From: a virus
Length of the DNA: 55,457 nucleotides
IMG/VR virus record: IMGVR_UViG_3300045988_047237
Span: 1-55,457 of that record
Strand: one strand, 5' to 3'
Below the pieces are notes generated by a model that saw nothing but the letters and a program-made list of their open reading frames with translations, was not told the origin of the DNA and ran no database searches. Made by a program: the position numbers and the translations under genes. Within the stretch, counting starts at the first letter, position 1; each line of letters starts with the position of its first letter. Shown piece after piece: positions 5,474 to 55,457 of the stretch.

Positions 5474-5763
5474 GAGTAGTTTCGCAGGACGGAAAGATAG
5501 ATATGCCGTATGAAATGGTAGGTATTTTCAGATTTAAGGCAGAAATCTATTTCTTAAATAGAAATCTGACAGGTGTTATACCGCTTGACGGCGATGTGAG
5601 GTTAGCCACTTATTCCACCGAAGAAAAGGCAATTAAGGCTATGAAAATGCTGAGAGAAGCATATTTACTTAAAGCAGAAATTGAGAGTGATAACTGTTAT
5701 GACTATAAGGTAGCATTAAACAAGGTATTTCAGTTTCCACAGGATGATGAAATCGAGGTGTAA
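5470..5763 (+). CDS. hypothetical protein
   Basis: 97-aa ORF with ATGA overlap to the upstream stop. Confidence 0.55.
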   Translation: MRVVSQDGKIDMPYEMVGIFRFKAEIYFLNRNLTGVIPLDGDVRLATYSTEEKAIKAMKMLREAYLLKAEIESDNCYDYKVALNKVFQFPQDDEIEV

Positions 5764-5765
5764 GT

Positions 5766-6493
5766 ATGAAACTTAAATGTATCGCAAGCGGTTCTTCTGG
5801 TAACTGTTATACCTTAACCGCTGATGACGGAGAAACACTTATCCTTGATTGTGGAATACCTCTTATGAAGATTAAAGAGGGATTGAATTGGAATATAGGA
5901 GGGATAGCGGGCGTGATTATAACTCACGCCCACCTCTAGACCATTCAAGAGCATTAAACGACCTTAAGGATATGCGAATACCGGTATTTGCACCGTACAT
6001 AAGCCTTAATCCTATGGCACTAGGCAGCGGTCAATTTAAGATAGCCGCTTTCGACCTGACAACGACAGACGGCAGGTGGACTCACACTAACGCAGACAGC
6101 ACCGAATGTCCTTGCTATGGGTTTATGATAATCCACCCGGAAATGGGGAAAATGCTTTACATAACCGATACGGAGTTGATTAAGTGGCGGTTCAAGGACG
6201 TAAACCATATTCTCTTAGGCGTGAATTACGACAAGGATTTAGTTGATGCCGACAATCCAAAGACAAGACACGTTTTCCGAGGGCATATGAGCATTGACAC
6301 AGCTTGCAATTTCGTTAAGGCTAACTATTCAGACAGCTTGCAGAACGTCATAATGTGCCATTTATCAAGCGAAAATGCTGACAAGGACTTATTTATCGAG
6401 AAAATGAAAAAAACCGCTTGTAGGGCAAATGTGGATGTAGCAGAACCGGGTAAACAATGGATTTTAAGGAAAGGAGATGAATGTCCGTTTTGA
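5766..6493 (+). pseudogene. MBL-fold metallo-hydrolase interrupted by a 2-nt frameshift inside the HxHxDH motif
   Basis: ATG 5766 gives MKLKCIASGSSGNCY...VIITHAHL then TAG 5937-5939. The other frame continues LDHSRAL... to 6493. Deleting one CT of cacCTCTagac restores THAHLDH. Confidence 0.8.
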
Positions 6494-15443: not shown

Positions 15444-16811
15444 ATGGAATGTGTTGCTTATATAAGAGTTTCGACAGAAAGACAAGCGGAGGAAGGTTAC
15501 GGACTTGAAAGCCAAAAACGTGACATTGACGAATACTGCCGTAAACATCAATTGATTATCAAGGAATATTATGTCGATGCCGGATTATCCGGAATGGAAA
15601 TGTCAAAACGTGTTGAACTTCAAAGACTTATATCTGATATGGCTAAAATTGATGTTATTGTTGTCTACAAGCTAGACAGACTTGCGCGTGATACCGTGGA
15701 TGCACTGTATATGATTGAAAAAATCTTTACGCCAAAGGGAATTTGTGTAGAAAGTGTTCACGATTTCGCTAGGTACGAAACACCGCAGGATAAATTCCAA
15801 ACTCAGGTTATGGCTGCCGTAGCAGAGTATGACAGAAATACTATGATGCTCCGTATGCGCGGTGGAATGTTGGAACGTGTTAAGAGAGGTTTTTGGATGG
15901 GCGGTGGCAATTTGCCATTCTGCTATTCGTATGACAAAGAATTGGGTATTTTAATACCAATTCCGGAGCGCGCCGAAACGGCAAGGAATGCACTTGAATT
16001 GTATATCAATGGGTATTCTGACGGCCGTATCGCTAGAATTTGCCATTACAGCGGTGAGCCGGTAGCGCGGAAAATCTTGACAAGTGTAGTAAACATCGGA
16101 ATGATACCGTACAAAGGCAAGGTGTATCAAGGCAAACACGAACCGATATTTGACATTGAACGCTACGAACTTGCGCAGGAGATCAGAAAGTCAAGGCACG
16201 ATGCCAAGAGTTGGATTGCACACCCTACCAACCTTTTAACCGGGTTGTGCTATTGCGGTGTATGCGGTTGTGCGATGCGCTATCAGAAATGGGGACAAAA
16301 AGAGGACTCTCCAAGGAAGATATATTGTTGTTCAAAGAACATAGACCTTGATTATCTTCCAAATTATAACCACGATTGCGACAGCAAACCGCAATGGGCG
16401 TCAGACATTGAAAAGCAGGTCGAGAAACAGATGCTTGAAATATCCGTCAATCTGTCAAAATACAAGCCAAAAGAAAAGGAAACGAAATTACAGATAATGC
16501 AGTCACAATTAAGCCGTGAAAAAAACAAATTAAAACGACTGTATATTCTTTATGCCGAGGGCAATGACACTGTAATTGAGTTGATTAAGCAGGCGGAAGA
16601 GGAAGTAAAACGTATTACCGCTGCAATTGAAGAGGAAAGCAAAGCGGCAAAGAACACGCAGAAAAAAGAATTTGTCTATGACAATATAAAAAAGCTTGCC
16701 GACGTTTGGGACAAAATCGACAAGCAAACCAAAAATAAGATACTTAAAACTATAATATCTAAAATTGTTATTGTCAATGACAACATTGAAATTCAGTTGA
16801 AGAATTTTTAG
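15444..16811 (+). CDS. int: large serine recombinase (integrase)
   Basis: N-terminal resolvase catalytic domain (AYIRVSTERQ...GLSG...YKLDRLARD), recombinase domain, Cys-rich zinc ribbon (CYCGVCGC...CC) and coiled-coil C-terminus. Confidence 0.92.
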   Translation: MECVAYIRVSTERQAEEGYGLESQKRDIDEYCRKHQLIIKEYYVDAGLSGMEMSKRVELQRLISDMAKIDVIVVYKLDRLARDTVDALYMIEKIFTPKGICVESVHDFARYETPQDKFQTQVMAAVAEYDRNTMMLRMRGGMLERVKRGFWMGGGNLPFCYSYDKELGILIPIPERAETARNALELYINGYSDGRIARICHYSGEPVARKILTSVVNIGMIPYKGKVYQGKHEPIFDIERYELAQEIRKSRHDAKSWIAHPTNLLTGLCYCGVCGCAMRYQKWGQKEDSPRKIYCCSKNIDLDYLPNYNHDCDSKPQWASDIEKQVEKQMLEISVNLSKYKPKEKETKLQIMQSQLSREKNKLKRLYILYAEGNDTVIELIKQAEEEVKRITAAIEEESKAAKNTQKKEFVYDNIKKLADVWDKIDKQTKNKILKTIISKIVIVNDNIEIQLKNF

Positions 16812-19740: not shown

Positions 19741-20331
19741 ATGGACGTATCAAGAATGCACGATATGATAGAAAAACTTTCAGAGTGTGCCAAAGCCGAA
19801 CTTGACAAGGGAACAGAGCACATTGACGCGGACGAAATGGGTAAAGTTACAGATATGCTCAAAGACCTTGCTGAAGCTATGTATTACCGTATTCTGACAG
19901 AAGAAATGGAAGAAGATGGTGGCAGACGTTTCTATGACGATTACCGCTATAAAACAACCGGAAGATTTGCACCAAAGGGCAAAGGAACATATGTCGGCAG
20001 GCACGGCTATGAAGAACCGCCTTATTGGCATATGACACCGGAGATGTACCGCGATATGGATAAATCCTATGGCAGAATGTACTTTACAGAGCCGGCAACA
20101 ATGGATAGCGGAAGAACCGAAAGCCGTTACGACACGGCAAAGAGACATTACACCGAAACGAGGGATATGCACCGCGAGAACACAAAGGAAGATAAAGAGC
20201 ACAAGATGAAAGCACTTGATGAGTACATCAAGGAACTTGCCGGAGACATTACGGATATGATTGACGGTATGACAGCAGAAGAGAAAGCCTTGGCAAAATC
20301 TAAACTGTCAACATTAGTCACAAAGATGTAA
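19741..20331 (+). CDS. hypothetical charged (Asp/Glu/Arg/Tyr-rich) protein
   Basis: 196-aa ORF after aggaggtgg. Confidence 0.55.
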   Translation: MDVSRMHDMIEKLSECAKAELDKGTEHIDADEMGKVTDMLKDLAEAMYYRILTEEMEEDGGRRFYDDYRYKTTGRFAPKGKGTYVGRHGYEEPPYWHMTPEMYRDMDKSYGRMYFTEPATMDSGRTESRYDTAKRHYTETRDMHRENTKEDKEHKMKALDEYIKELAGDITDMIDGMTAEEKALAKSKLSTLVTKM

Positions 20332-20398
20332 CTACAATGCCGTGGTAACGCGCATATTGACGTTATCACGGCGGTTTATATGATGTTGGAGGAAATAT

Positions 20399-20722
20399 AT
20401 GGTAATTGAGATAAACGGCTCATTATGGCGAATACAAGCCGTAGACGGGCATAATAAATTATTAATCCGCAGTGACGGTGTATACACTTTGGGCGTGACG
20501 GACAACAATGTTAAAACTATATACATTAAGCAAGGATTGTCTGACCGTATGTTTGATAAAGTTTTGTGCCACGAACTGACACACGCATATGCCTTTGAGT
20601 ACGGATATTTCCTCGACATCAAGACCGAGGAAATAGTCGCCGACTTTATGTCGCTGTATGGCAGGAAGATTGTATATATGGCCGAGGAAATTATAAGAAA
20701 TGTACTAAGGAGGGCATTATGA
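20399..20722 (+). CDS. small HExxH metallopeptidase-like protein
   Basis: CHELTHAYAFEYG contains HExxH in an ImmA/SprT-like context. Confidence 0.5.
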   Translation: MVIEINGSLWRIQAVDGHNKLLIRSDGVYTLGVTDNNVKTIYIKQGLSDRMFDKVLCHELTHAYAFEYGYFLDIKTEEIVADFMSLYGRKIVYMAEEIIRNVLRRAL

Positions 20723-20856
20723 TTGACCTTAAGGCACTTTATGAAAGAGTGCAGAAAACTAATCCAGAAATCACTGAAAACAAAATTCGTGAAGAAATCG
20801 GGAAATCTGAATACGGAGCAAAAGCGCTCATTATATCTACGGCGGATAAAAAATAG
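20719..20856 (+). CDS. hypothetical small protein (45 aa)
   Basis: ATGA overlap with the upstream stop. Confidence 0.4.
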   Translation: MIDLKALYERVQKTNPEITENKIREEIGKSEYGAKALIISTADKK

Positions 20857-20858
20857 TG

Positions 20859-20887
20859 TTGACAAATAGCAAACTGCACTGTATTAT
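20859..20887 (+). promoter_or_regulatory. sigma-A-type promoter of a short transcript
   Basis: TTGACA (20859-64), 17 nt, TATTAT (20882-87). Confidence 0.6.
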
Positions 20888-20893
20888 AATAGC

Positions 20894-20995
20894 AAATATT
20901 AATAGTATCCATTTTGGAATGTAAAGATTTACTCGAAATATATAATAAATAGACACATTATGGAAAAGTCATAGGCTATCTATGACTTTTATTAC
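20894..20995 (+). ncRNA. candidate small RNA: CRISPR-repeat-like 5' segment, ~38-nt unique segment, terminator hairpin
   Basis: No ORF. Predicted 5' end ...attaatagtatccattttggaatgtaaag (to 20925). 11-bp stem 20964-74/20980-90 plus T-rich tail. Confidence 0.45.
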
Positions 20996-21016
20996 TTTTC
21001 GGAGGTACGAATATAT

Positions 21017-21721
21017 ATGAAAGTGGTAAAATTAAAGACATTCCAACAAATGGCACATTTCAGAGACCATATGGCACCGTGCGGAGCAGATTGCTACCCC
21101 TTACCGCCATTCAGTACAGTATGTGGCCTGATACACAATTTATGTCAGTGGACATCCTATCATCCTTTAGACTTCTTTATTTCCGGCAAGGGAATTATGA
21201 ATACCGAGGTCAGACGTGAATGGCAAGGCGGTTATCATTTTAAAACGGTAAATGCGGACGCAAAAAAACGATGGGACGTAATCACGGACGATGAAAACGA
21301 CTCACATACCGGTTGGGTAGGAGCTATAAAAAACCATGCGATGCTTACTGACCTTAATCTGACAATTTACATCAAAGCTGATGATGAGGATCTGAATGCA
21401 ATATACAAAGCATTAATTAATCCTCCGATTTATCCGTCATTGGGCGAATATGGAGATTTATGCGACATACAAAGTGTTGAAATAATCGACTTAACGGAGT
21501 ATGGCGAACCGCAAACCGGAGAATTATCAGAACCGGCGTATATACCGGTAGACAAATTCGGCCGCAGCTGTCTCGGCACTGTTTATTTATTGAATAACCG
21601 ATACACTATTGTAAGAAAGCATAGACGTTTTGAAAAGGTACGATGTTTTTGGGCGGATAAAGGGCAGAAGATAGACAGCAAATTATTTGATGGCGATGCA
21701 CCGATAGTATTTATAGAGTAA
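21017..21721 (+). CDS. cas5: Cas5-like RAMP protein (type I-B Cas5 homolog), orphan
   Basis: N-terminus KLKTFQQMAHFRDH....CYPLPPFSTVCGLIHNLC matches the Cas5 hallmark (AhFR ... sYPlPPpSTv.Gl). Later YPSLGEYGDL..I..V.I and YIPVD...GTVYLLN fit the I-B Cas5 layout. 234 aa. No other cas genes in the window. Confidence 0.6.
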   Translation: MKVVKLKTFQQMAHFRDHMAPCGADCYPLPPFSTVCGLIHNLCQWTSYHPLDFFISGKGIMNTEVRREWQGGYHFKTVNADAKKRWDVITDDENDSHTGWVGAIKNHAMLTDLNLTIYIKADDEDLNAIYKALINPPIYPSLGEYGDLCDIQSVEIIDLTEYGEPQTGELSEPAYIPVDKFGRSCLGTVYLLNNRYTIVRKHRRFEKVRCFWADKGQKIDSKLFDGDAPIVFIE

Positions 21722-21754
21722 AAAATAAGGGATATGCCAAAAGTCATATCCCTT

Positions 21755-22021
21755 TTAACATATAGAATTTTCCATTTTCAGCAAAGCCAACAGCATAGAT
21801 GCTTTCATCAATTTGTGACTCTCATATTCTCTCAATTCAAATGGTGGTTTGCCCTCTTCAACAAAATTGTAATCAATGTAGAGCGTTACGCCTTTTGCCC
21901 TCATAGTAACGACATCTACCATCATATCGCCGCCAAATTCAGCAATATCATCCTCTAATTCCTTGATTAAATCTTCGCATTCGTAGGAAATTCTTTCCCC
22001 TTGATGATTTATTAATGGCAT
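21755..22021 (-). CDS. hypothetical protein
   Basis: 88-aa ORF after aggagg on the minus strand (rc of 22026-32). Confidence 0.55.
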   Translation of the reverse strand: MPLINHQGERISYECEDLIKELEDDIAEFGGDMMVDVVTMRAKGVTLYIDYNFVEEGKPPFELREYESHKLMKASMLLALLKMENSIC

Positions 22022-22071
22022 ATATATCCTCCGTAAAATTTAAAAATTTTTTTTGAGACTTTTTTCGCGTT

Positions 22072-22257
22072 TCACTGGTTTTCTGTGCAATTATTTATAC
22101 AATCAATAATAAATCCATTCAGCCCCTTAAAACCTTTCTTTTTCGCTAAAGCAAGCCACTCATCTTTTTTGCCCTTTGGTGCCATAACAGTTATTCGGTC
22201 ATAGTTTTTTTCATTCCATCTATTTTTAACTTCTGCTGATGTTTTCGACTTTGACAT
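22072..22257 (-). CDS. ribbon-helix-helix (Arc/CopG-like) DNA-binding protein
   Basis: Pattern K..W...NYDRI.V..PKGKK.....A...G.....FI typical of small RHH regulators. Confidence 0.5.
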   Translation of the reverse strand: MSKSKTSAEVKNRWNEKNYDRITVMAPKGKKDEWLALAKKKGFKGLNGFIIDCINNCTENQ

Positions 22258-22286
22258 GGCGTTCTCCTTTTTTTATGAATTATACT

Positions 22287-22330
22287 ACTTTTTAAAGTAT
22301 GTTGCAATACTTTATAAAGTATGTTATAAT
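22287..22330. promoter_or_regulatory. two palindromic operators overlapping a divergent promoter
   Basis: actttttaaagt (22287-98) and actttataaagt (22309-20). TTGCAA (22302-07), 17 nt, TGtTATAAT (22322-30). Confidence 0.55.
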
Positions 22331-22356
22331 AGATATTAGAAAGGCAGGTGCTTATA

Positions 22357-23115
22357 ATGGCAAGTTTAGATACCATTGGTGGTTTACATTATGAAATGAT
22401 GAGAAGATGTTATAATGAGAAATCCATAGCTTATAAGGATTACGGTGCCAAAGGAATTGAGGTCTGTGATGAATGGAAAGACAGAGAAAAATTTAGAAAA
22501 TGGTGTAAAGAAAACGGTTGGAATAAAAATCTACGATTGAATAGAAAAGATGGATCAAAAAATTATTGCCCTGATAATTGCTATTTTGGCAATAAATCGA
22601 CGAAAAAGAAAAATTCTATGTCTCAAATAACGAAGAAAAAAATTAAAGCAAATAAATTAAAAAAAGAGAAAGCTGGAATAATAGGGAAAATCAATGAAGA
22701 TCCGCTTTATTACACATTTCATGGAATGCATTCAAGATGTGAAAATAAAAGCCACTCAAGTTACAAAAATTATGGCGGAAGAGGAATTTCAGTATGCAAA
22801 GAATGGAGTGGAAAGAATGGATTTTTTAATTTCAAAAAATGGGCAGTCAACAATGGGTGGAGCAAGGAATTGTCAATAGACCGAAAAGACAATAATAAAG
22901 GATATTGTCCAAATAATTGTAAATTTTCAACTAGAATTGAACAAAATTTTCACAGAAGAAGCAATATATATTATGAATATTGTGGTGTGAATATTCCACT
23001 AGGAATGATTGCAAAATTAGAAAATATTAAGTATGGATTGTTGTATACTAGGGTAAGGAAAAAAGGAATGAGTGTTGACGAAGCATTAAGAGATATAAGA
23101 AATAAATTTAATTAA
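22357..23115 (+). CDS. tandem-duplicated DNA-binding / HNH_3-like protein
   Basis: Two copies of Y..M..RC.N.....YK.YG..GI.VC.EW.....F..W...NGW......DRKD..K.YCP.NC.F. Family assignment uncertain. Confidence 0.45.
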   Translation: MASLDTIGGLHYEMMRRCYNEKSIAYKDYGAKGIEVCDEWKDREKFRKWCKENGWNKNLRLNRKDGSKNYCPDNCYFGNKSTKKKNSMSQITKKKIKANKLKKEKAGIIGKINEDPLYYTFHGMHSRCENKSHSSYKNYGGRGISVCKEWSGKNGFFNFKKWAVNNGWSKELSIDRKDNNKGYCPNNCKFSTRIEQNFHRRSNIYYEYCGVNIPLGMIAKLENIKYGLLYTRVRKKGMSVDEALRDIRNKFN

Positions 23116-27010: not shown

Positions 27011-27268
27011 ATGATGTATAACAGTTTGGCAGAAATGCAGAAATCTTATAGAGACCGTGTTAAGAATATTCTTGATAAAGACACCACTTTGCCAGCAAGT
27101 AAACGTGAAGTATTGCAGATATTTGATTACCTGGCAGAACAACACGCGGATGATGTTAGAGCTTGTAACATTCTTGATGAGGTTGTTAAGGCTAATGTCA
27201 GCCGCAGGAAATATAAAAAGATTATGCTTGCGGCGGCTAAAGAACTTATGAATAGGGGCATCGTTTAA
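27011..27268 (+). CDS. hypothetical protein
   Basis: 85-aa ORF after aaaggag; its 3' end overlaps the tRNA-Gln start. Confidence 0.5.
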   Translation: MMYNSLAEMQKSYRDRVKNILDKDTTLPASKREVLQIFDYLAEQHADDVRACNILDEVVKANVSRRKYKKIMLAAAKELMNRGIV

Positions 27269-27324
27269 TGGCAAGACACGGCACTTTGACTGCCGGGATA
27301 TGGGTTCAATTCCCATTGCTCCCG
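27254..27324 (+). tRNA. tRNA-Gln (anticodon UUG)
   Basis: Manual cloverleaf: acceptor 6 of 7 bp, D stem gttt/agac with GG loop, anticodon stem cggca/tgccg with loop cTTTGac, T arm atggg-ttcaatt-cccat. No encoded CCA. Confidence 0.75.
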
Positions 27325-27327
27325 TTC

Positions 27328-27366: not shown

Positions 27367-27640
27367 CCACATGATATATCTGTATTCCATATTTATCATG
27401 AACCCCCTTTCTCCGCTAGGACTATTCTGTTAAGAACCGTGAGAGACGGTTCGGCGGGGTTTGTTCGGACAGAACATTAAGATGTCTGTTTGTGTGCGTA
27501 TCCCACTGCACACAAACGGCATTGTGGAAATCAACCCGTGGTTTTATTTGTTTCCCACGTTCCGTGATAGGCGGATGACATATTATAACTCCTCTTAAAA
27601 GTATGTGGTGTGCAAACGTACGGTTGTTTGCATACCGGCG

Positions 27641-27720
27641 CAAAACGTAGCTTAATTGGCAAAGCAAAGGTTTTTTCATCCTTTCTGACCTTGATGTCGG
27701 TCCGACTCCGGCCGTTTTGC
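27641..27720 (+). tRNA. tRNA-like element with aberrant anticodon arm (pseudo-tRNA or noncanonical tRNA)
   Basis: Perfect 7-bp acceptor caaaacg/cgttttg, U8, D arm gctt-aattggca-aagc, T arm gtcgg-tccgact-ccggc (C at position 55). The anticodon region folds only as 5 bp with a 9-nt loop ttttttcat, or 5 bp with a 16-nt loop. Confidence 0.4.
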
Positions 27721-27727
27721 TTAAAAC

Positions 27728-28330
27728 ATGATTATCTCGGTGCAGATAGGTTTTTCAGCCTTGCCGAGACACGCGAGAAAACGAGATAGGCATAATCGGG
27801 ATACCGGATATGCTAATATCTTTTGCTGTACTGTGAGGTACGGCAGGGAGACGGAAACCGTCAACAATGCTTGCGTGGTGTATCATCATAGAGAAGCCAA
27901 GGGCAGAGGACTTGTGGCTGTGAATAATAGACGCCTACGGTGTAGGAATAATCCGTTGAAGTTCGTGGAATGAGAGACCACGGACAAATCACGGAAAATC
28001 TCAAATTAAGCAGTGTGCCTTGAAACCGGAGAAATCCGGATATAACACAAGTAACTCGTTAAAGTAGCGGTATGGCACGATTTCATTCTAACAATTATCG
28101 AATGGCGAACACGATAATATTCCGAAAGAACCGTGAAATTTGTGGGTATCAATCCCACGTGTGCTTTGAAAGCGGCAAGAAGCCTTAGGGCCGCTCCCAA
28201 AGGCTCGGACTTGTTGCCACAGTGGCAGAATATGGCTGTATGTATGGTGAATAAAGAGAAATCTTAATTATGTTTTAGTTTTTGGAATGGCAAGATAGGT
28301 ATTGTAGTAGTAGGGACTTGCCGTTCCAAA
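27728..28330 (+). ncRNA. candidate large structured ncRNA (~600 nt; GOLLD/ROOL-like context)
   Basis: No RBS-supported ORF. Ten or more helices, including a GAAA-capped stem 28026-30/28035-39, long-range 28015-19/28074-78, and an H-type pseudoknot 28171-76/28190-95 with 28181-86/28200-05. Flanked by tRNAs. Confidence 0.5.
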
Positions 28331-28334
28331 ATAT

Positions 28335-28417
28335 GCAGATGTGGTGTAATGGTATCACAGTAGCTTGCTAAGCTATCCGGCAGAAATGCCGTCAAGGTTC
28401 GAGTCCTTGCATCTGCG
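28335..28417 (+). tRNA. tRNA-Ser (anticodon GCU), type II
   Basis: Acceptor gcagatg/catctgc, anticodon stem gtagc/gctat with loop ttGCTaa, long variable arm ccggcagaaatgccgtc, T arm caagg-ttcgagt-ccttg, discriminator G. Confidence 0.85.
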
Positions 28418-28490
28418 CTTTCACATATAAACGAAATGGAAATATAGTTGTTGGTTATCTGTATTATCCCAAAACCATCTATGTGTGAAT

Positions 28491-42946: not shown

Positions 42947-45900
42947 ATGGCAGATAACGACATTGACCGCTTGAAGATACAAGTCGAAGCCGAAGCGACT
43001 AAGGCAAGCAATGCAATAGACCGCTTGGCTAATAGTATGCTTAAGATGTCGCAAAGCCTTGGCGTAGATACGCACAAGCTGATGAACATTGCGACAAGTA
43101 TCAGACAAGTATCGGATGCGGCAACCGGCTTTAAAGGTGGCAAATCAGCCGAAATAACCTCTTTAGCACGAAGCCTTACCAAATTCTCATCTGTCGATAC
43201 AAACTCGATATATGGGATTTCTTCGGCGTTACAAAACCTTGCAAATGGTATGGCGGCGGCACAGAGTATAGACGCGAGCGGAATAGCCGGTCTTGTAAAT
43301 GCAATATCAAAACTTGGCGGCGTGAAGTCCACAGCCGGAACAGATAACTTGCTCCGTATGAAAGATGACCTTGTGCAATTCATACAAGGGATGAACTCTG
43401 TCGGAAGCCTTAATTTTGATGTTACCGGACTGTCAAACCTGATATACACGGTATCAAGGCTTGGTACGAATATATCAAGTAATGCCACGGCAAATTTACC
43501 GGGAATATCAACGCAGTTACAGAATTTTGTCCGTCAGATGAATGATATAGGCTCTATTAGTTTTGATGTAAATAGACTGTACAGTCTCACAAGTTCAATA
43601 TCAAGGCTTGGCGGTGTTGCATCGGGCAGGGCAATAACAAACATTCCGCAGTTGGCACAAGCGCTTAAGAACCTTATGGCAACCTTGGCGACGGCACCGC
43701 AGGTAAGCAATAATCTTATACAGATGACAAACGCGATTGCCAACCTTGCAGCACAAGGCAGTAAAGCAGGAACAGCATCAAAACGAATACAAAAAGGACT
43801 TGATAACGTATCAAGGAGTGCCACAACAGCGAAAGCCAAAACAGTGAGCCTTGCGCAGGTGTTTGGTAAGCTGTACGCGAATTTCTTTTGGGTTATTCGT
43901 GGCGTTAAAAAATTAAACAGTGCAATCCGAAGCACAACGGATTACATTGAAGCATTTAACTACTATACCGTAGCTTTTAACAAAATCGGTTCAGAATGGG
44001 GCGATGAATTTGCTAAATACGGTTATGACAATGCCACAGAATACGCGAACAGTTTTGCAAAGCGCGTAAACGATAAATTAGGCAAGTTATCCGGTCTTAA
44101 GGTTGATATAGATGCAGGACTTCTTGTTGAGAGCGGTGCGAAAAACCTTGGACTGAACATACAAGAGGTTACGCAATATGCGTCACAGCTTGCATCGGTA
44201 ACTAACTCATTAGGGCAGAGCGGAGAAACAACGACCGCAATAGCAAAGTCAATGACAATGCTTGCAGGCGATATAAGCTCTCTTTTTAATGTTGATTACT
44301 CAACAGTAGCAACGAATTTACAAAGCGGCTTAATCGGTCAATCAAGGGCAGAGTTGTTAGTTGCGTAAACAATGCGAAGTAACTAACAGTACCCACCATA
44401 GCGAAATTGCCAAGTAGGCTATGGATAAAAAGTGTGAAATTAAGCGGGGAAATGGTTTGCAACCACAATCCGAACCGAAGTATATCGGCAAAATGATATA
44501 CAGGGGCAACGCATAGAAGATGAACCTATAATTGAGATATTATAGAATATAATTCTTCCAAGAGGTCACACTATCGGGCAATACAGCACGCAGAGTGCTG
44601 TGGTAAAAAGCTATGCTGGACTATACTGTAATGGTATAGAAGTAAGGATAAAAAGCCTTACGATAACAACCGACTCTACAAGTACGGCATTGATATAACG
44701 AATGCTACATTACAGACATATGCCTATAACTTAGGCATTGAAAAATCCATAAGCGAAATGTCGCAAATGGAAAAACAGCAATTAAGAGTTCTTGCAATCC
44801 TCGACCAAAGCAAAGTATCGTGGGGCGATTTAGCTAATAGACGAAAGAAAGTTTACAGATTAACTTATCTTTCAAGTGTTGCATAAGAATAGAAATATCT
44901 TATGGCAATCGGGCAAAATCGGTGAAGGCTAAGGCTTTAAGCTATGCTAATACCGAGATAACTCAATAGATAGCGAAAGGTTATTGAGTATCGTAACGAG
45001 TAGGAAGTGAATAAATATAATCTTCCCAAGAGTGTCCGACACTACTGTATAAAGGACAGTATGAGGTGGAAGTGGCTACCACCAAACCAAACGTAAAACG
45101 TGGGTGATAATGTACTCTGAACTTGTAGGAAACTATAAGAAGCATAGGATAAAGAGCCTATGCGATAACATGATTGACAATAAATTCGCCAAACAATATG
45201 ATACGTCAGCTTAGTACGAACTTTAAGGAAACCGGAATGGTCTTAGGGCAGTTGTTTATACCTATGCTGCAAAAGGTTTTACCGGTTATCAACGGTGCTA
45301 CGATTGCGGTTAAGCGACTGTTAGTAAACATTGCGTCCCTTATGGGAATTAAGATTGACTTTGAAAGTTTCGGTCAAAGCGGTTACAAAGAGGAAAGCGG
45401 TGCCGTAGATGATGTTGCGGACAGCTACGATAATGCAGCCGCAGCCGCTAAAAAATGGCAAAATCAGCTTATGGGATTTGATGAAATCAATAAGCTTACG
45501 GAACAGAGCGATACAAGTAGCGGCAAAACGGCAGGTGCCAAAGATACACTTGACCTTACAGATGAAATTCTTAAGGCTACGGAAAATTACGAAAAGGTTT
45601 GGAACAAAGCCTTTGCAAATATGGAGAATGAAGCACAGAAATGGGCGGATAAAATTTACAACACGATTGTAAACCATAGGTGGTATGAAGCCGGAAAATT
45701 CATAGGTAGTCTATTGTCTGACGGTGTATCTTCTGTCGATTGGGAGGGTGTCGGAAAATGGATAAGCGATACCATATGCGGTGCCATTGATTTTGTCAGA
45801 GGTTTTATTGACGGTGTAGATTGGAATGAATTAGGCAAAGCCATTGTAGAAATGGTAAACAACATTGATGTTGGCGAAATAATTGTTTCAATCGCCAAAC

Positions 45901-47177
45901 TTGTGTTTTCACTAGCCGGTGCATTACTTGAATTTAATTGGGGAAGTTATCAAGGTGCCTGGGAAGAAGGTGGCGTAGGAGGAGTAATTGCAAGGATACT
46001 TGCCGGAAGTGCTCCTGGCTTGCCGATAATCATCAAGCTTACAACGGAAATTATCGCAAAGATAAAAGACACCGAATTTTTCAAGGCTATTAATGATTGG
46101 TGGGATGATAATGTCCTTCCAAAGCTTGAAAAGGCGTGGGAAATAAATACAAAGATTATCGCCGAAATAACGAATGTATTCAAGAACACCGCAAAGCAAT
46201 TATGGGATAACTTCAAAAAGGCGTGGAAGACTGTCGCAAAAGCCGGAATTGAAATTGTCAACGACTTTAAAAACACCGCGAAAGAAATGTGGGAAGATTT
46301 TAAAGACTCTTGGCTTGGAAGTTGGGTAATCTCAATCGGAAATGAGTTTGTCAATACCGCAAAACAGCTATGGGATAAGCTTAAGAACGAGTGGGATAGA
46401 ATACGCCATAATTGGATTGAAATAACTAACTTACTTAAGTTTACCGCAAGCGAATTGTGGGAAAGGTTCAAAGGAAGCGGTTTTGGAAAATGGGCAATCT
46501 CCATTGTCAATACACTTAAAAATACCGCATCGCAGTTATGGAACAATTTCAAGACGAATTGGGGCAATCGCGCGGTATCTATCATAAATACGCTTAGAAA
46601 CACGGCATCGGAATTGTGGGCGAAATTTAAAGCCGGTTGGAGAAACTTTGGAGTGAGCATAAAGAATGTTTTATTGCATCCTGCAAGTACATTGTATAAA
46701 AACTTTAAAATAGCTTGGTCGATAGCCGCTGCAGCCGGTGTTAAGATTTTTAACCGGTTAGCTGAAACTGCAAGGGAGTTATGGAACAAGTTCAAGGAAA
46801 ATTGGTATAAACTCAATCCGGTACTTAACATCGGACTAAGCCTGATTGACAAGATAAAAGGTCTCAGAGGCGGCGGTGGCGGAAGTGCTTTTGCAACCGG
46901 TGGATTTCCGGAAGACGGAGTATTCTATGCCAACCATAATGAACTTGTCGGACGTTTTTCCAACGGAAAGACAGCCGTCGCTAATAACGATCAGATAACT
47001 ACCGGTATTAGGGAAGCTGTAGTGAGTGGTATGTTACAAGTGTTTGGTGGTATGAATATGAGCAGTCAGCCTAGCCACATTGTAGTTCAGATTGACGGCA
47101 AAGAAGTATTCAGTGCTGTACAAAAGCAGGCAGATGACTTTACGACAAGAACCGGGCAACCGGCATTTTTAACCTAG
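42947..47177 (+). CDS. tail tape measure protein, three exons (42947..44349, 44673..44838, 45177..47177; ~1189 aa)
   Basis: ORF-1 ends ...LIGQSRA, the middle exon reads LYKYGIDITNATLQTYAYNLGIEKSISEMSQMEKQQLRVLAILDQSKVSWGDLAN, and ORF-3 resumes TINSPNNMIRQL. This is one continuous conserved TMP motif. Frames add up (1403+166+2001 nt). Confidence 0.75.
44350..44672 (+). mobile_element. ORF-less intron 1 in the tape measure gene (group I-like, ~323 nt; 5' boundary +/- 6 nt)
   Basis: Stops in all frames; many hairpins (e.g. acagcac/gtgctgt, ctatac/gtatag, gtaagg/ccttac). The 3' end ...ggataaaaagccttacgataacaaccg parallels intron 2. Ends in G. Confidence 0.6.
44839..45176 (+). mobile_element. ORF-less intron 2 in the tape measure gene (group I-like, 338 nt)
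   Basis: The 5' exon ends in T and the intron ends in G. Hairpins cataaga/tcttatg, gataactcaat/attgagtatc, ggtgg/ccacc, catagg/cctatg. Junction restores ...GDLAN|TINSPNN.... Confidence 0.65.
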
Positions 47178-55044: not shown

Positions 55045-55457
55045 GAGTTACAAGGGATTTAACAAAGATATGACTTGCAAAGGATTTCAATATGAAGAGG
55101 GCAAGGAATACGAGACAGAAAGGGCAGAGTGTTGTGAAACCGGATTTCATGCGTGCGAATATCCGTTGGATTGTTTTTCACATTACGCGCCAAATGACAG
55201 CGTATATCATGAAGTAGAGCAGGACGGAGACATTGACCGCAAAGATGGCGGTACAAAGATTGCATCAACCAAAATCAAGATTGGCGCAAGAATAAGCATA
55301 GCCGGAATTGTTAAAGCAGCTATTGAGTACACAATGAGCAGAACTAAAAAGGAAGCAAGCAAAGATGATGATTACGGCGCATCGTCAGCCACCGGTTCTT
55401 ACGGCGCATCGTCAGCCACCGGTTCTTGTGGCGCATCGTCAGCCACCGGAGATTACG
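55034..55457 (+). CDS. 5' part of the wrap-around repeat protein (continues at 1..338)
   Basis: ATG 55034 after aaaggaga; open to the window edge. N-terminus YKGFNKDMTCKGFQYEEGKEYE...CETGFHACEYPLDCF is a recurring phage/prophage domain. Confidence 0.75.
   Translation, partial: MAIKSYKGFNKDMTCKGFQYEEGKEYETERAECCETGFHACEYPLDCFSHYAPNDSVYHEVEQDGDIDRKDGGTKIASTKIKIGARISIAGIVKAAIEYTMSRTKKEASKDDDYGASSATGSYGASSATGSCGASSATGDY

Follow-up and report, generated by a model that had tools for sequence, protein, structure and literature searches.

Introduction

Viruses carry orphan cas genes, and one of their products, the Cas5 homolog AcrIB3, joins Cascade and disables it (Katz et al., 10.1101/2023.06.24.545427). 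Phages also encode RNAs that resemble CRISPR RNAs (crRNAs): RNA anti-CRISPRs (Racr) and regulatory mini-arrays ("Cracr") lie beside anti-CRISPR (Acr) genes and may even be part of one transcript with them (PMC10651486; 10.1101/2023.03.03.530964; 10.1101/2024.10.29.618823). Here we describe a phage locus in which a crRNA-like RNA precedes a lone cas5 homolog (positions 21017-21721, plus strand). The locus is part of a stretch of viral DNA of 55,457 nt (positions 1 to 55,457 of the IMG/VR record IMGVR_UViG_3300045988_047237), which was analysed at its full length and is called the window in the following. The cassette at 20859-21754 (about 0.9 kb) consists of a promoter, the crRNA-like RNA, a hairpin, cas5 and a terminal hairpin. 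We consider it to be probably a two-component counter-defence module against type I-B CRISPR systems, composed of a hook-less Cas5 mimic and an RNA of the Cracr/Racr type.

AcrIB3 is a Listeria protein that is 38% identical to Listeria Cas5. It blocks type I-B interference upstream of DNA binding and co-purifies with Cascade, whereas over-expression of genuine Cas5 has no effect, and its homologs outside cas loci were found in Listeria only (10.1101/2023.06.24.545427). Compared to Cas5, AcrIB3 has lost an 18-residue hook for Cas8b and gained a 6-residue loop towards Cas7, and both changes are needed for activity (2026 review PMC13131331). The survey by Katz et al. removed loci with predicted arrays, and RNA partners were not reported. 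Its Table S3 (358 orphan viral cas genes) lists one member of the phage family studied here, IMGVR_UViG_3300029054_000005, with Lachnospira as the IMG/VR host call (10.1101/2023.06.24.545427). This contig is locus L174 of our analysis; contigs of the window's own clade (type A, see below) are absent from that table.

The RNA of the window can be compared to two classes of phage RNAs. Racr RNAs (Camara-Wilpert et al. 2023, PMC10651486) are promoter-proximal repeat mimics on a phage, as in the window, and can be co-transcribed with an Acr protein (RacrIC1-AcrIC5). RacrIF1 consists of a single repeat, and its inhibitory product lacks the 5' handle and thus excludes Cas5 and Cas8 (PMC10651486). 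Such a solitary repeat does not match the window RNA, in which two units derive from repeats and an 8-nt handle precedes a spacer. Cracr RNAs or regulatory mini-arrays (Shmakov et al. 2023, 10.1101/2023.03.03.530964; Liu et al., 10.1101/2024.10.29.618823) and the host RNAs CreR and CreA have the same layout of repeat, short spacer and repeat. Like the window RNA, Cracr mini-arrays have degenerate repeats and their own promoter and are located on a phage beside an anti-CRISPR gene, outside of a cas locus. However, the partner of Cracr is a conventional Acr, while the partner of the window RNA is a homolog of a Cas subunit.

A preliminary description of the window, made from the sequence alone, had considered this arrangement as not described. 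This was too broad, given the AcrIB3 class, the family member in Table S3 and the published crRNA-like RNAs of phages beside Acr genes. In the literature searched we found no link of a crRNA-like RNA to a Cas5 homolog, and the Cracr preprint mentions Cas5 zero times. While a lone viral Cas5 is already known, its fixed pairing with a crRNA-like RNA appears to be unreported.

Results

The Orphan Gene Encodes a Divergent Type I-B Cas5

The open reading frame (ORF) at 21017-21721 starts with ATG and encodes a protein of 234 aa from the type I-B (Cas5t-like) lineage without the hook segment. The coordinates and the sequence blocks quoted in the preliminary description (CYPLPPFSTVCGLIHNLC, INPPIYPSLGEYGDLCDIQSVEIIDL, AYIPVD..GTVYLLNNRY, RFEKV) were confirmed in the translation, and the type I-B-like Cas5 identity proposed there is supported by profiles and predicted fold. 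Searches with Cas5 profiles, which had been named as a check, gave strong matches far beyond chance. NCBIfam TIGR01895 (cas_Cas5t) matched residues 1-215 with E = 8.8e-23 and 81 bits. TIGR02593 (Cas5 N-terminal domain) matched with 22.8 bits, exceeding the cutoff of 17.8 bits, and the PADLOC Cas5b model PDLC02094 with E = 4.2e-26, together with 14 more Cas5 models (15 in total). Pfam Cas_Cas5d was not significant for this protein (0.058). Since the TIGR01895 score does not reach the curated equivalog cutoff of 96.7 bits, we class the protein as a divergent relative and not as ordinary Cas5b.

Structure prediction, also named in the preliminary description, recovered a Cas5 fold. A profile search of 1.8 billion representatives resulted in 456 matches at E < 1e-3 and served as source for an 83-sequence alignment, from which AlphaFold2 generated a model with a predicted local distance difference test score (pLDDT) of 94.9. 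An earlier model from ten close relatives only (pLDDT 56) was unusable. When the Protein Data Bank (PDB) was searched with Foldseek, the top 23 matches were all Cas5-type subunits or stand-alone Cas5-like Cas proteins. The best match was 8fcj_A, the Cas5 of a type I-B CRISPR-associated transposon (E = 4e-8, template modeling (TM) score 0.57-0.62), and Cas5 proteins of type I Cascades (5u0a_N, 4tvx_H, 8ip0_A) were also among the leading ones, with TM scores of 0.5-0.62 over the set. Searching PDB sequences with the family profile gave no match; the fold search alone succeeded. Among predicted viral structures, a single uncharacterised phage protein was close to the model. The product of 21017-21721 is a real but divergent type I-B Cas5.

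With genuine type I-B Cas5 (Cas5t/Cas5b, TIGR01895) the window protein has the fold, the domain order and the N-terminal YPLPP(F/Y)ST..G..H and SLG motifs in common. It is 29-33% identical to genuine Cas5b in a 12-sequence alignment, and 28-34% identical (tblastn) to Cas5 proteins beside arrays of the repeat family from which the adjacent RNA derives. Two insertions present in most of the latter proteins are missing. Genuine type I-B Cas5 is encoded in cas6-cas8b-cas7-cas5-cas3 operons, whereas the window cas5 has no neighbouring cas genes.

The view that the window contains no other cas gene and no array holds after several independent searches. Pfam (1e-5) revealed phage and housekeeping families only for the 103 window ORFs, and the best 25 of the 68 PADLOC families matched over these ORFs include no Cas family. 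By tblastn with Cas8b, Cas7, Cas3, Cas4 and Cas1 from two genuine I-B operons nothing was found in the window or its relatives except cas5. Neither Tandem Repeats Finder (TRF) nor a repeat finder detected a CRISPR array in the window, and a degenerate repeat pattern matched only once, at 20901-20919.

Eleven near relatives of the protein (51-96% identity) are all encoded in the same syntenic slot in related phages or prophages. In IMG/VR at least 119 contigs, mostly of 50-60 kb, have the cas5 homolog, and nine assembly loci add to these, again in the same syntenic slot. The relatives fall into type A, the clade of the window (94-97% identity, and a branch at 81%), and type B (55-58%). The ratio of nonsynonymous to synonymous substitution rates (dN/dS) is 0.05-0.2 in the family and 0.05-0.16 for the window cas5 versus relatives, and cas5 is under strong purifying selection. 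Judged from these comparisons, the lone phage Cas5 is real and conserved, and almost certainly functional. More than 119 genomes have kept the gene, and this and the dN/dS values exclude a decayed remnant of a phage-borne CRISPR system. The edge of a captured host operon or a misassembly, considered at the outset as a possible artefact, is ruled out by more than 80 related loci with the same orphan arrangement.

A crRNA-like RNA Is Encoded Directly Upstream of cas5

The crRNA-like RNA is located at 20896-20990, between a preceding 45-aa ORF and cas5. A sigma-70-type promoter on the plus strand (20859-20887; TTGACA, 17 nt, TATTAT/TATAAT; 11 of 12 positions) represents the best promoter-like site within 20300-22400 and is kept in all type A and type B relatives. 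No further promoter-like site of the plus strand is present from there to the start codon of cas5. Judged from this layout, the promoter presumably drives the RNA and, by read-through, also cas5.

The first unit of the RNA, R1 (20896-20926, plus strand), is a full-length CRISPR-repeat-like sequence (ATATTAATAGTATCCATTTTGGA/ATGTAAAG; the slash marks the predicted Cas6 cut). Based on the cleavage site known from type I-B biology, processing of R1 would leave the 8-nt 5' handle AUGUAAAG (20919-20926). R1 belongs to a 30-nt repeat family, ..TAGAACCATA(G/T)TGGAATGTAAAT, that is found in dozens of genuine Clostridia arrays (one genome per species was scanned). The hosts of these arrays include Romboutsia, Peptacetobacter, Tissierella, Konateibacter, Lachnotalea, Blautia and others. 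A loose repeat pattern gave mostly chance matches in the genomes and a tighter pattern was used instead. R1 of the window agrees with the array repeat of the genuine I-B locus L426 (the same locus as L292) at 25 of 31 positions and with the repeat of the host crRNA-like RNA of L426 at 26 of 32. R1 is followed by a spacer-like segment of 16 nt (20927-20942, plus strand; ATTTACTCGAAATATA) and by R2 (20943-20968, plus strand; TAATAAATAGACACATTATGGA/AAAG), a degenerate repeat truncated at the Cas6 site that would supply the 3' handle. R2 aligns with the R2 units of the modules from four other clades (type B, P0012, P0013 and Eisenbergiella, see below), all of which end with TGGA(A) directly before a hairpin. 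By its sequence, the RNA composed of R1 and R2 is a derivative of a genuine Clostridial I-B repeat family, and the "repeat-like RNA" that the preliminary description had placed beside cas5 is real.

A hairpin with a 12-bp stem and a run of T (20964-20990, plus strand) follows as intrinsic terminator or attenuator between the RNA and cas5. It was found by a terminator scan and is part of both the minimum-free-energy and the centroid fold; the sole substitution in its stem keeps the pair as G-U. The ribosome binding site (GGAGG) and the ATG of cas5 are located in the next 27 nt or so, too close for a separate cas5 promoter. Downstream of the cas5 stop codon a second hairpin is located at 21727-21754. 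It was reported by the terminator scan for the minus strand, while on the plus strand the stem is followed by TTTTAAC; by sequence it would be a bidirectional terminator. The fold z-score for the whole RNA is unremarkable (-1.4), and Rfam contains no match for it.

In eight type A phages, variable sites are rare in R1 (2 of 31) and R2 (1 of 26). In the spacer, positions 1-7 do not vary (0/7), and 4 of the 9 positions from 8 to 16 do. In type B, an internal deletion of R1 (TTTAATAG/ATGTAAAC) puts the 8-nt handle right behind the -10 box, the spacer has about 24 nt, and R2 stops at TGGA/A just before the terminator. The handle of another locus, L424, also begins directly after the -10 box. Since handle, spacer and 3' repeat are all present, the window RNA seems to be built to engage Cas5, the subunit that the phage itself supplies.

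The RNA and cas5 Are Paired in Five Divergent Clades

The preliminary description had suggested a survey of related phages for the pair of RNA and cas5. A crRNA-like RNA was present beside cas5 in every type A and type B relative. Altogether, an RNA with short spacer, truncated last repeat and terminator is found beside cas5 in five divergent clades with 34-58% identity to the window protein, namely type A, type B, P0012, P0013 and Eisenbergiella, in either gene order. In the P0012 clade (42%; human-gut contigs) promoter, R1 with the handle ATCTAAAG, a 17-nt spacer and a truncated R2 precede cas5. In the P0013 clade (41%; viral contigs of 58 kb) cas5 comes first; the RNA behind it has its own promoter, contains one or two short spacers and ends in a truncated repeat and a terminator. 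The P0013 phages have the neighbouring genes of the window, and the cassette is inverted. In two Eisenbergiella loci from metagenome-assembled genomes (MAGs; 35-36%), a promoter downstream of cas5 precedes two to four units, whose spacers are 15-18 nt long. These multi-spacer units are similar to a "Cracr-array", and their spacers resemble the host spacer of L426. No relatives of the family were detected in GTDB representative genomes, and none for P0012 and P0017 in IMG/VR.

A mini-array with the architecture of the window RNA is also part of locus L426, where it is located upstream of cas6 (about 5600-5775). Its 17-nt spacer matches 14 of 17 positions about 20 nt upstream of the -35 box of cas6; positions 6, 12 and 17 differ, and the protospacer adjacent motif (PAM) is CCA. 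This pattern of mismatches and PAM corresponds to the published signature of autoregulatory crRNA-like RNAs of the CreR type, and by sequence the L426 mini-array looks like such an autoregulator.

Mini-arrays were also observed in other settings. In Mediterraneibacter, Extibacter and Peptacetobacter (L210, L222, L250), stand-alone short-spacer mini-arrays with promoter, repeat, 17-18-nt spacer and truncated repeat have no cas gene within 8 kb; a terminator hairpin is present in L222 and L250. In Candidatus Galacturonibacter soehngenii (L293, 3400-7025) cas8b-cas7-cas5 are directly followed by a mini-array, which starts with a partial repeat, has spacers of 23 and 33 nt and ends with a truncated repeat; no cas3, cas4 or cas1 is found in the next 3.4 kb.

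The Window Protein Resembles AcrIB3 but Belongs to a Different Clade

For a direct comparison, the AcrIB3 sequence was taken from Katz Table S2. AcrIB3 (237 aa) and the window protein (234 aa) are both full-length Cas5b homologs, each encoded alone on a mobile element, and are 31% identical over the full length (pairwise E = 6e-36). In the joint 12-sequence alignment the segment TENNSVHFKSHESSVGRD of Listeria Cas5, which corresponds to the hook of about 18 aa, is missing from AcrIB3 and from all orphan proteins, and the orphan proteins have an insertion at the beta-hairpin where AcrIB3 carries SPQKDKM. Loss of the hook and the long loop were scored in the window protein versus the Cas5 proteins of Listeria, Tissierella and Anaeromonas.

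Several features separate the two proteins. AcrIB3 is 45% identical to Listeria Cas5 in our comparison, i.e., closer to it than to the window protein, and the two proteins are not from the same clade. The window Cas5 lineage therefore looks, by sequence, like a co-option separate from AcrIB3. An RW.GG insertion of the orphan clade has no counterpart in AcrIB3 or genuine Cas5b, and no crRNA-like companion was reported for AcrIB3. Matches to "Listeria phage LM 4-14-1 / 4-11-1" obtained by tblastn were rejected as AcrIB3 precedent; they stem from a full I-B operon in UNVERIFIED_ORG records. The corresponding entries (L422, GenBank OR848150.1, and also OR846720.1) have a complete I-B cas8b-cas7-cas5-cas3-cas1 operon and are probably bacterial contigs.

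A Sister Spacer Allele Matches the Start of cas3

The window spacer ATTTACTCGAAATATA has no match elsewhere in the window. A sister allele of type A, ATTTACTTAAATCATA, which is present in five relatives, shows a 16/16 antisense match to codons 2-6 of cas3 (MYDLSKY) in L426, and no match with 0-1 mismatches was found in 1.6 Mb of control DNA. The array repeat of this locus has the start TATTAATAG in common with R1 of type A. We take silencing of cas3, as suggested by this sequence match, as a lead and not as a result.

A 19-nt scan of genomes with the type B spacer gave chance-level matches only. Two further candidates were rejected: the prefix of a P0013-clade spacer matched a conserved cas7 motif (FHNNLY) in six loci, but the rate in control DNA was comparable and the match was not significant; a 14-nt stretch inside the type B spacer that matches the cas6 promoter of L426 was not counted, as it is without the PAM-proximal seed. 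Cracr RNAs are defined by at least 9 PAM-proximal matches to the cas or creT promoter of the cognate host. For the window allele no such match was found in the sequences searched, the host locus not having been recovered. For Racr RNAs, similarity to the repeats of their own host is expected. In our case the RNA resembles the Clostridia I-B repeat family, and no Lachnospira array was found. If a host I-B system is cognate to the cassette, a repeat close to ATATTAATAG..CCAT..TGGAATGTAAAG is expected.

The Cassette Is Part of a Temperate Phage Genome

The phage-borne nature of the locus, claimed already in the preliminary description, is borne out by the gene content. According to Pfam, the window encodes an SPP1-type portal, an E-type major capsid protein, a large serine recombinase, SSB and an antirepressor, and judged by these genes it is a temperate siphophage. 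Positions 9-86 match positions 55376-55453, and because of this overlap the genome looks complete; it is probably circular or terminally redundant, and a gene that contains repeats probably crosses the junction. The overlap crosses a 27-nt in-frame tandem repeat (GGCGCATCGTCAGCCACCGG..., regions 1-113 and 55349-55457). No DNA-level similarity to deposited phages was found.

A type B prophage is present in a contig of 407 kb with 99% identity to [Lactobacillus] (Lachnospira) rogosae. The prophage interrupts sigF, a sigma-factor gene of sporulation (L001, 5175-5432), where the 99% collinearity to an uninterrupted genome stops after ...STYAVP. The large serine recombinase of the window (15444-16811; Resolvase and Zn_ribbon_recom) fits to an intervening element of sporulation genes.

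Pfam returned nothing for the ten ORFs around the cassette beyond a weak M78/ImmA-like match. The 107-aa ORF upstream of the cassette (20399-20722) has a HELTH motif and weak M78/ImmA-like matches. In the relatives with 81% identity (L007/L009), ArdA and Lar_restr_allev genes are located a few kb from cas5, and by gene content the cas5 neighbourhood is an accessory or anti-defence region. Further downstream, a 22-nt tandem repeat (TTATAATACTTTATAAAGTATG, 2.4 copies; 22280-22331) overlaps divergent promoter-like sites between a 61-aa gene (22072-22257, minus strand) and a gene on the plus strand (22348-23115), and looks like an operator region. A weak relative of the 61-aa gene is located directly upstream of cas5 in the Eisenbergiella locus L255. 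The phage genome also contains a full-length ROOL RNA (RF03087, 363 bits; 27712-28285), flanked by tRNA-Lys (27640-27721) and tRNA-Ser (28335-28418), and a tRNA-Gln at 27253-27325. A 39-nt coding repeat (ACCGCA..TTATGGGA..TGG) is found in five copies at 46188-46805 within a 667-aa ORF (45174-47177), whose position and size suggest a tail gene of the tape-measure type.

Discussion

If the cassette is a two-component module against type I-B systems, the Cas5 mimic would, like AcrIB3, occupy the place of Cas5 at the crRNA 5' handle as Cascade assembles. The resulting Cascade would be unable to do its normal job, since the protein lacks the hook of about 18 residues that Listeria Cas5 uses for Cas8b; the window protein also has an enlarged loop, at the position of the Cas7-contacting loop of AcrIB3. 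The crRNA-like RNA, made from the same promoter upstream of cas5, would rely on host Cas6 and Cas7 for processing and loading. It may soak up these host subunits, a decoy mode as in Racr for which the spacer need not match anything, or it may steer a small non-cleaving Cascade to a host target for silencing, with the start of cas3 or a cas promoter as candidates. We infer the anti-CRISPR activity, the entry of the protein into Cascade, the processing of the RNA by Cas6 and the target of the spacer. Poisoning of Cascade by subunit mimicry, for which AcrIB3 is the precedent, and loading of a phage guide onto host Cascade had both been put forward in the preliminary description, and they are the two leading mechanisms that may apply here. 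Its idea that such a guide serves inter-phage competition is unsupported, because the spacer is short (about 16 nt) and hardly varies inside a clade.

Several observations weigh against the two-component module. No Lachnospira array was among the matches of the repeat scan and the host I-B locus was not recovered. These phages are matched neither by any of 1807 spacers from the fetched arrays nor by any of the 12 of L426. For the spacer allele of the window itself no good target was present in any sequence searched, and at the cas3 site of L426 it has 4 mismatches. The perfect cas3 match is a single one, stems from a sister allele and lies in a MAG without demonstrated host status; the site is flanked by TGT, versus the PAM CCA of the locus's own crRNA-like RNA. 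Other type A alleles predict the Cas3 N-termini MYISSK, MYVLSK and MYILSK, none of which was present among the 120 Cas3 relatives listed. On the side of the protein, the genuine Cas5 of Sedimentibacter (L237), encoded in a full operon, is also hook-less and has the long loop, and this state is therefore not diagnostic of an inhibitor. Moreover, a guide that needs DNA binding seems contradictory if the protein stops Cascade from binding DNA; the contradiction is lifted only if the RNA acts solely as a decoy or the protein serves the viral RNA exclusively.

The latter option is a reading of its own, in which the viral Cas5 specifically caps the handle of the viral RNA and host Cas7 assembles from there, joined or not by Cas6 and Cas8b. 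A small chimeric, binding-competent Cascade would result and would silence a chosen host gene by CRISPR interference (CRISPRi) on DNA or as antisense ribonucleoprotein (RNP) on mRNA, and the protein would help the RNA. The linkage of both genes is kept in clades at 34-42% identity and in both gene orders, which is more than usual for independent Acrs, and in the window both are on one promoter. Moreover, the handle differs by clade (AUGUAAAG, AUGUAAAC, AUCUAAAG), the RW.GG insertion is private to the orphan clade when compared to AcrIB3 and genuine Cas5b, and in the sole strong spacer match, antisense to codons 2-6 of cas3, the spacer pairs with the non-template strand. By analogy, AcrIF24 is reported to spare Cracr complexes with short spacers. 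However, nothing points to specific recognition between this Cas5 and this handle, and the stand-alone mini-arrays of the same family in L210, L222 and L250 argue that the RNA can do without a Cas5 of its own. There is one cas3 match only, flanked by a triplet other than CCA, and the other alleles have no matching cas3 N-terminus among the relatives listed. We consider such a dedicated pair as possible but rather unlikely. A stricter form would be an obligate pair, in which the handle-binding subunit of the phage lets the short guide out-compete host crRNAs for Cas7 and Cas6, and the resulting mini-Cascade binds without recruiting Cas3 and shuts off cas3 on the DNA or, as antisense RNP, at its first codons. 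This version is speculative, and we regard it as doubtful.

Alternatively, the protein could be an AcrIB3-type anti-CRISPR on its own, and the repeat-like sequence a leader, an attenuator or the relic of a cas-array junction with no function in trans. AcrIB3 works alone, the hairpin between promoter and cas5 is terminator-like and could serve as an attenuator, and the fold of the RNA is inconspicuous by z-score. But R1 and R2 (3 variable sites in 57) are far more conserved than the synonymous sites of cas5 (dS 0.2-0.35), and the architecture equals that of a host crRNA-like RNA whose spacer matches the region just upstream of the cas6 promoter. In P0013 and Eisenbergiella the array lies behind cas5, with a promoter and a terminator of its own, and therefore cannot be a leader. 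A capture relic is unlikely as well, because in canonical I-B operons cas5 is followed by cas3 and not by an array. Altogether, we regard a protein acting alone as improbable. An RNA-processing or exapted role, i.e., cleavage of its own RNA or host pre-crRNA by the protein as endoribonuclease (like Cas5d in type I-C) or an RNA-binding task in the phage life cycle unrelated to CRISPR, is very improbable: Cas5 proteins are RAMPs, some of which cleave repeats, as established for type I-C (cited in PMC10651486), and the handles of type B and L424 right after the -10 box look as if 5' cleavage by Cas6 were dispensable, but the profiles favour the non-catalytic I-B Cas5t, with no significant score for Cas_Cas5d, and there is no evidence for any non-CRISPR job.

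Should the protein and the RNA be two independent inhibitors side by side, the two-component module would be an ordinary addition to known families. An obligate pair would represent a phage "reprogramming kit" of one Cas subunit and one guide, unlike Acrs that poison a subunit or naked RNA decoys. The cassette unites Cas-derived and RNA anti-CRISPRs, two recent discoveries that were so far studied separately, and its protein is the very subunit that reads the 5' handle of its RNA. It is conserved in at least five divergent lineages of phages and prophages of gut Clostridia, and it is small and easy to clone. It could show whether phages privilege their own guide by a private Cas subunit, which would be a new hijacking logic for multi-subunit CRISPR effectors. 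Surveys that discard loci with predicted arrays or ignore spacers of 16 nt miss the RNA partner, and an orphan cas5 together with a truncated repeat is a possible search key for anti-I-B loci in the poorly studied gut Lachnospiraceae. Short-spacer I-B guides may also serve non-cutting gene repression.

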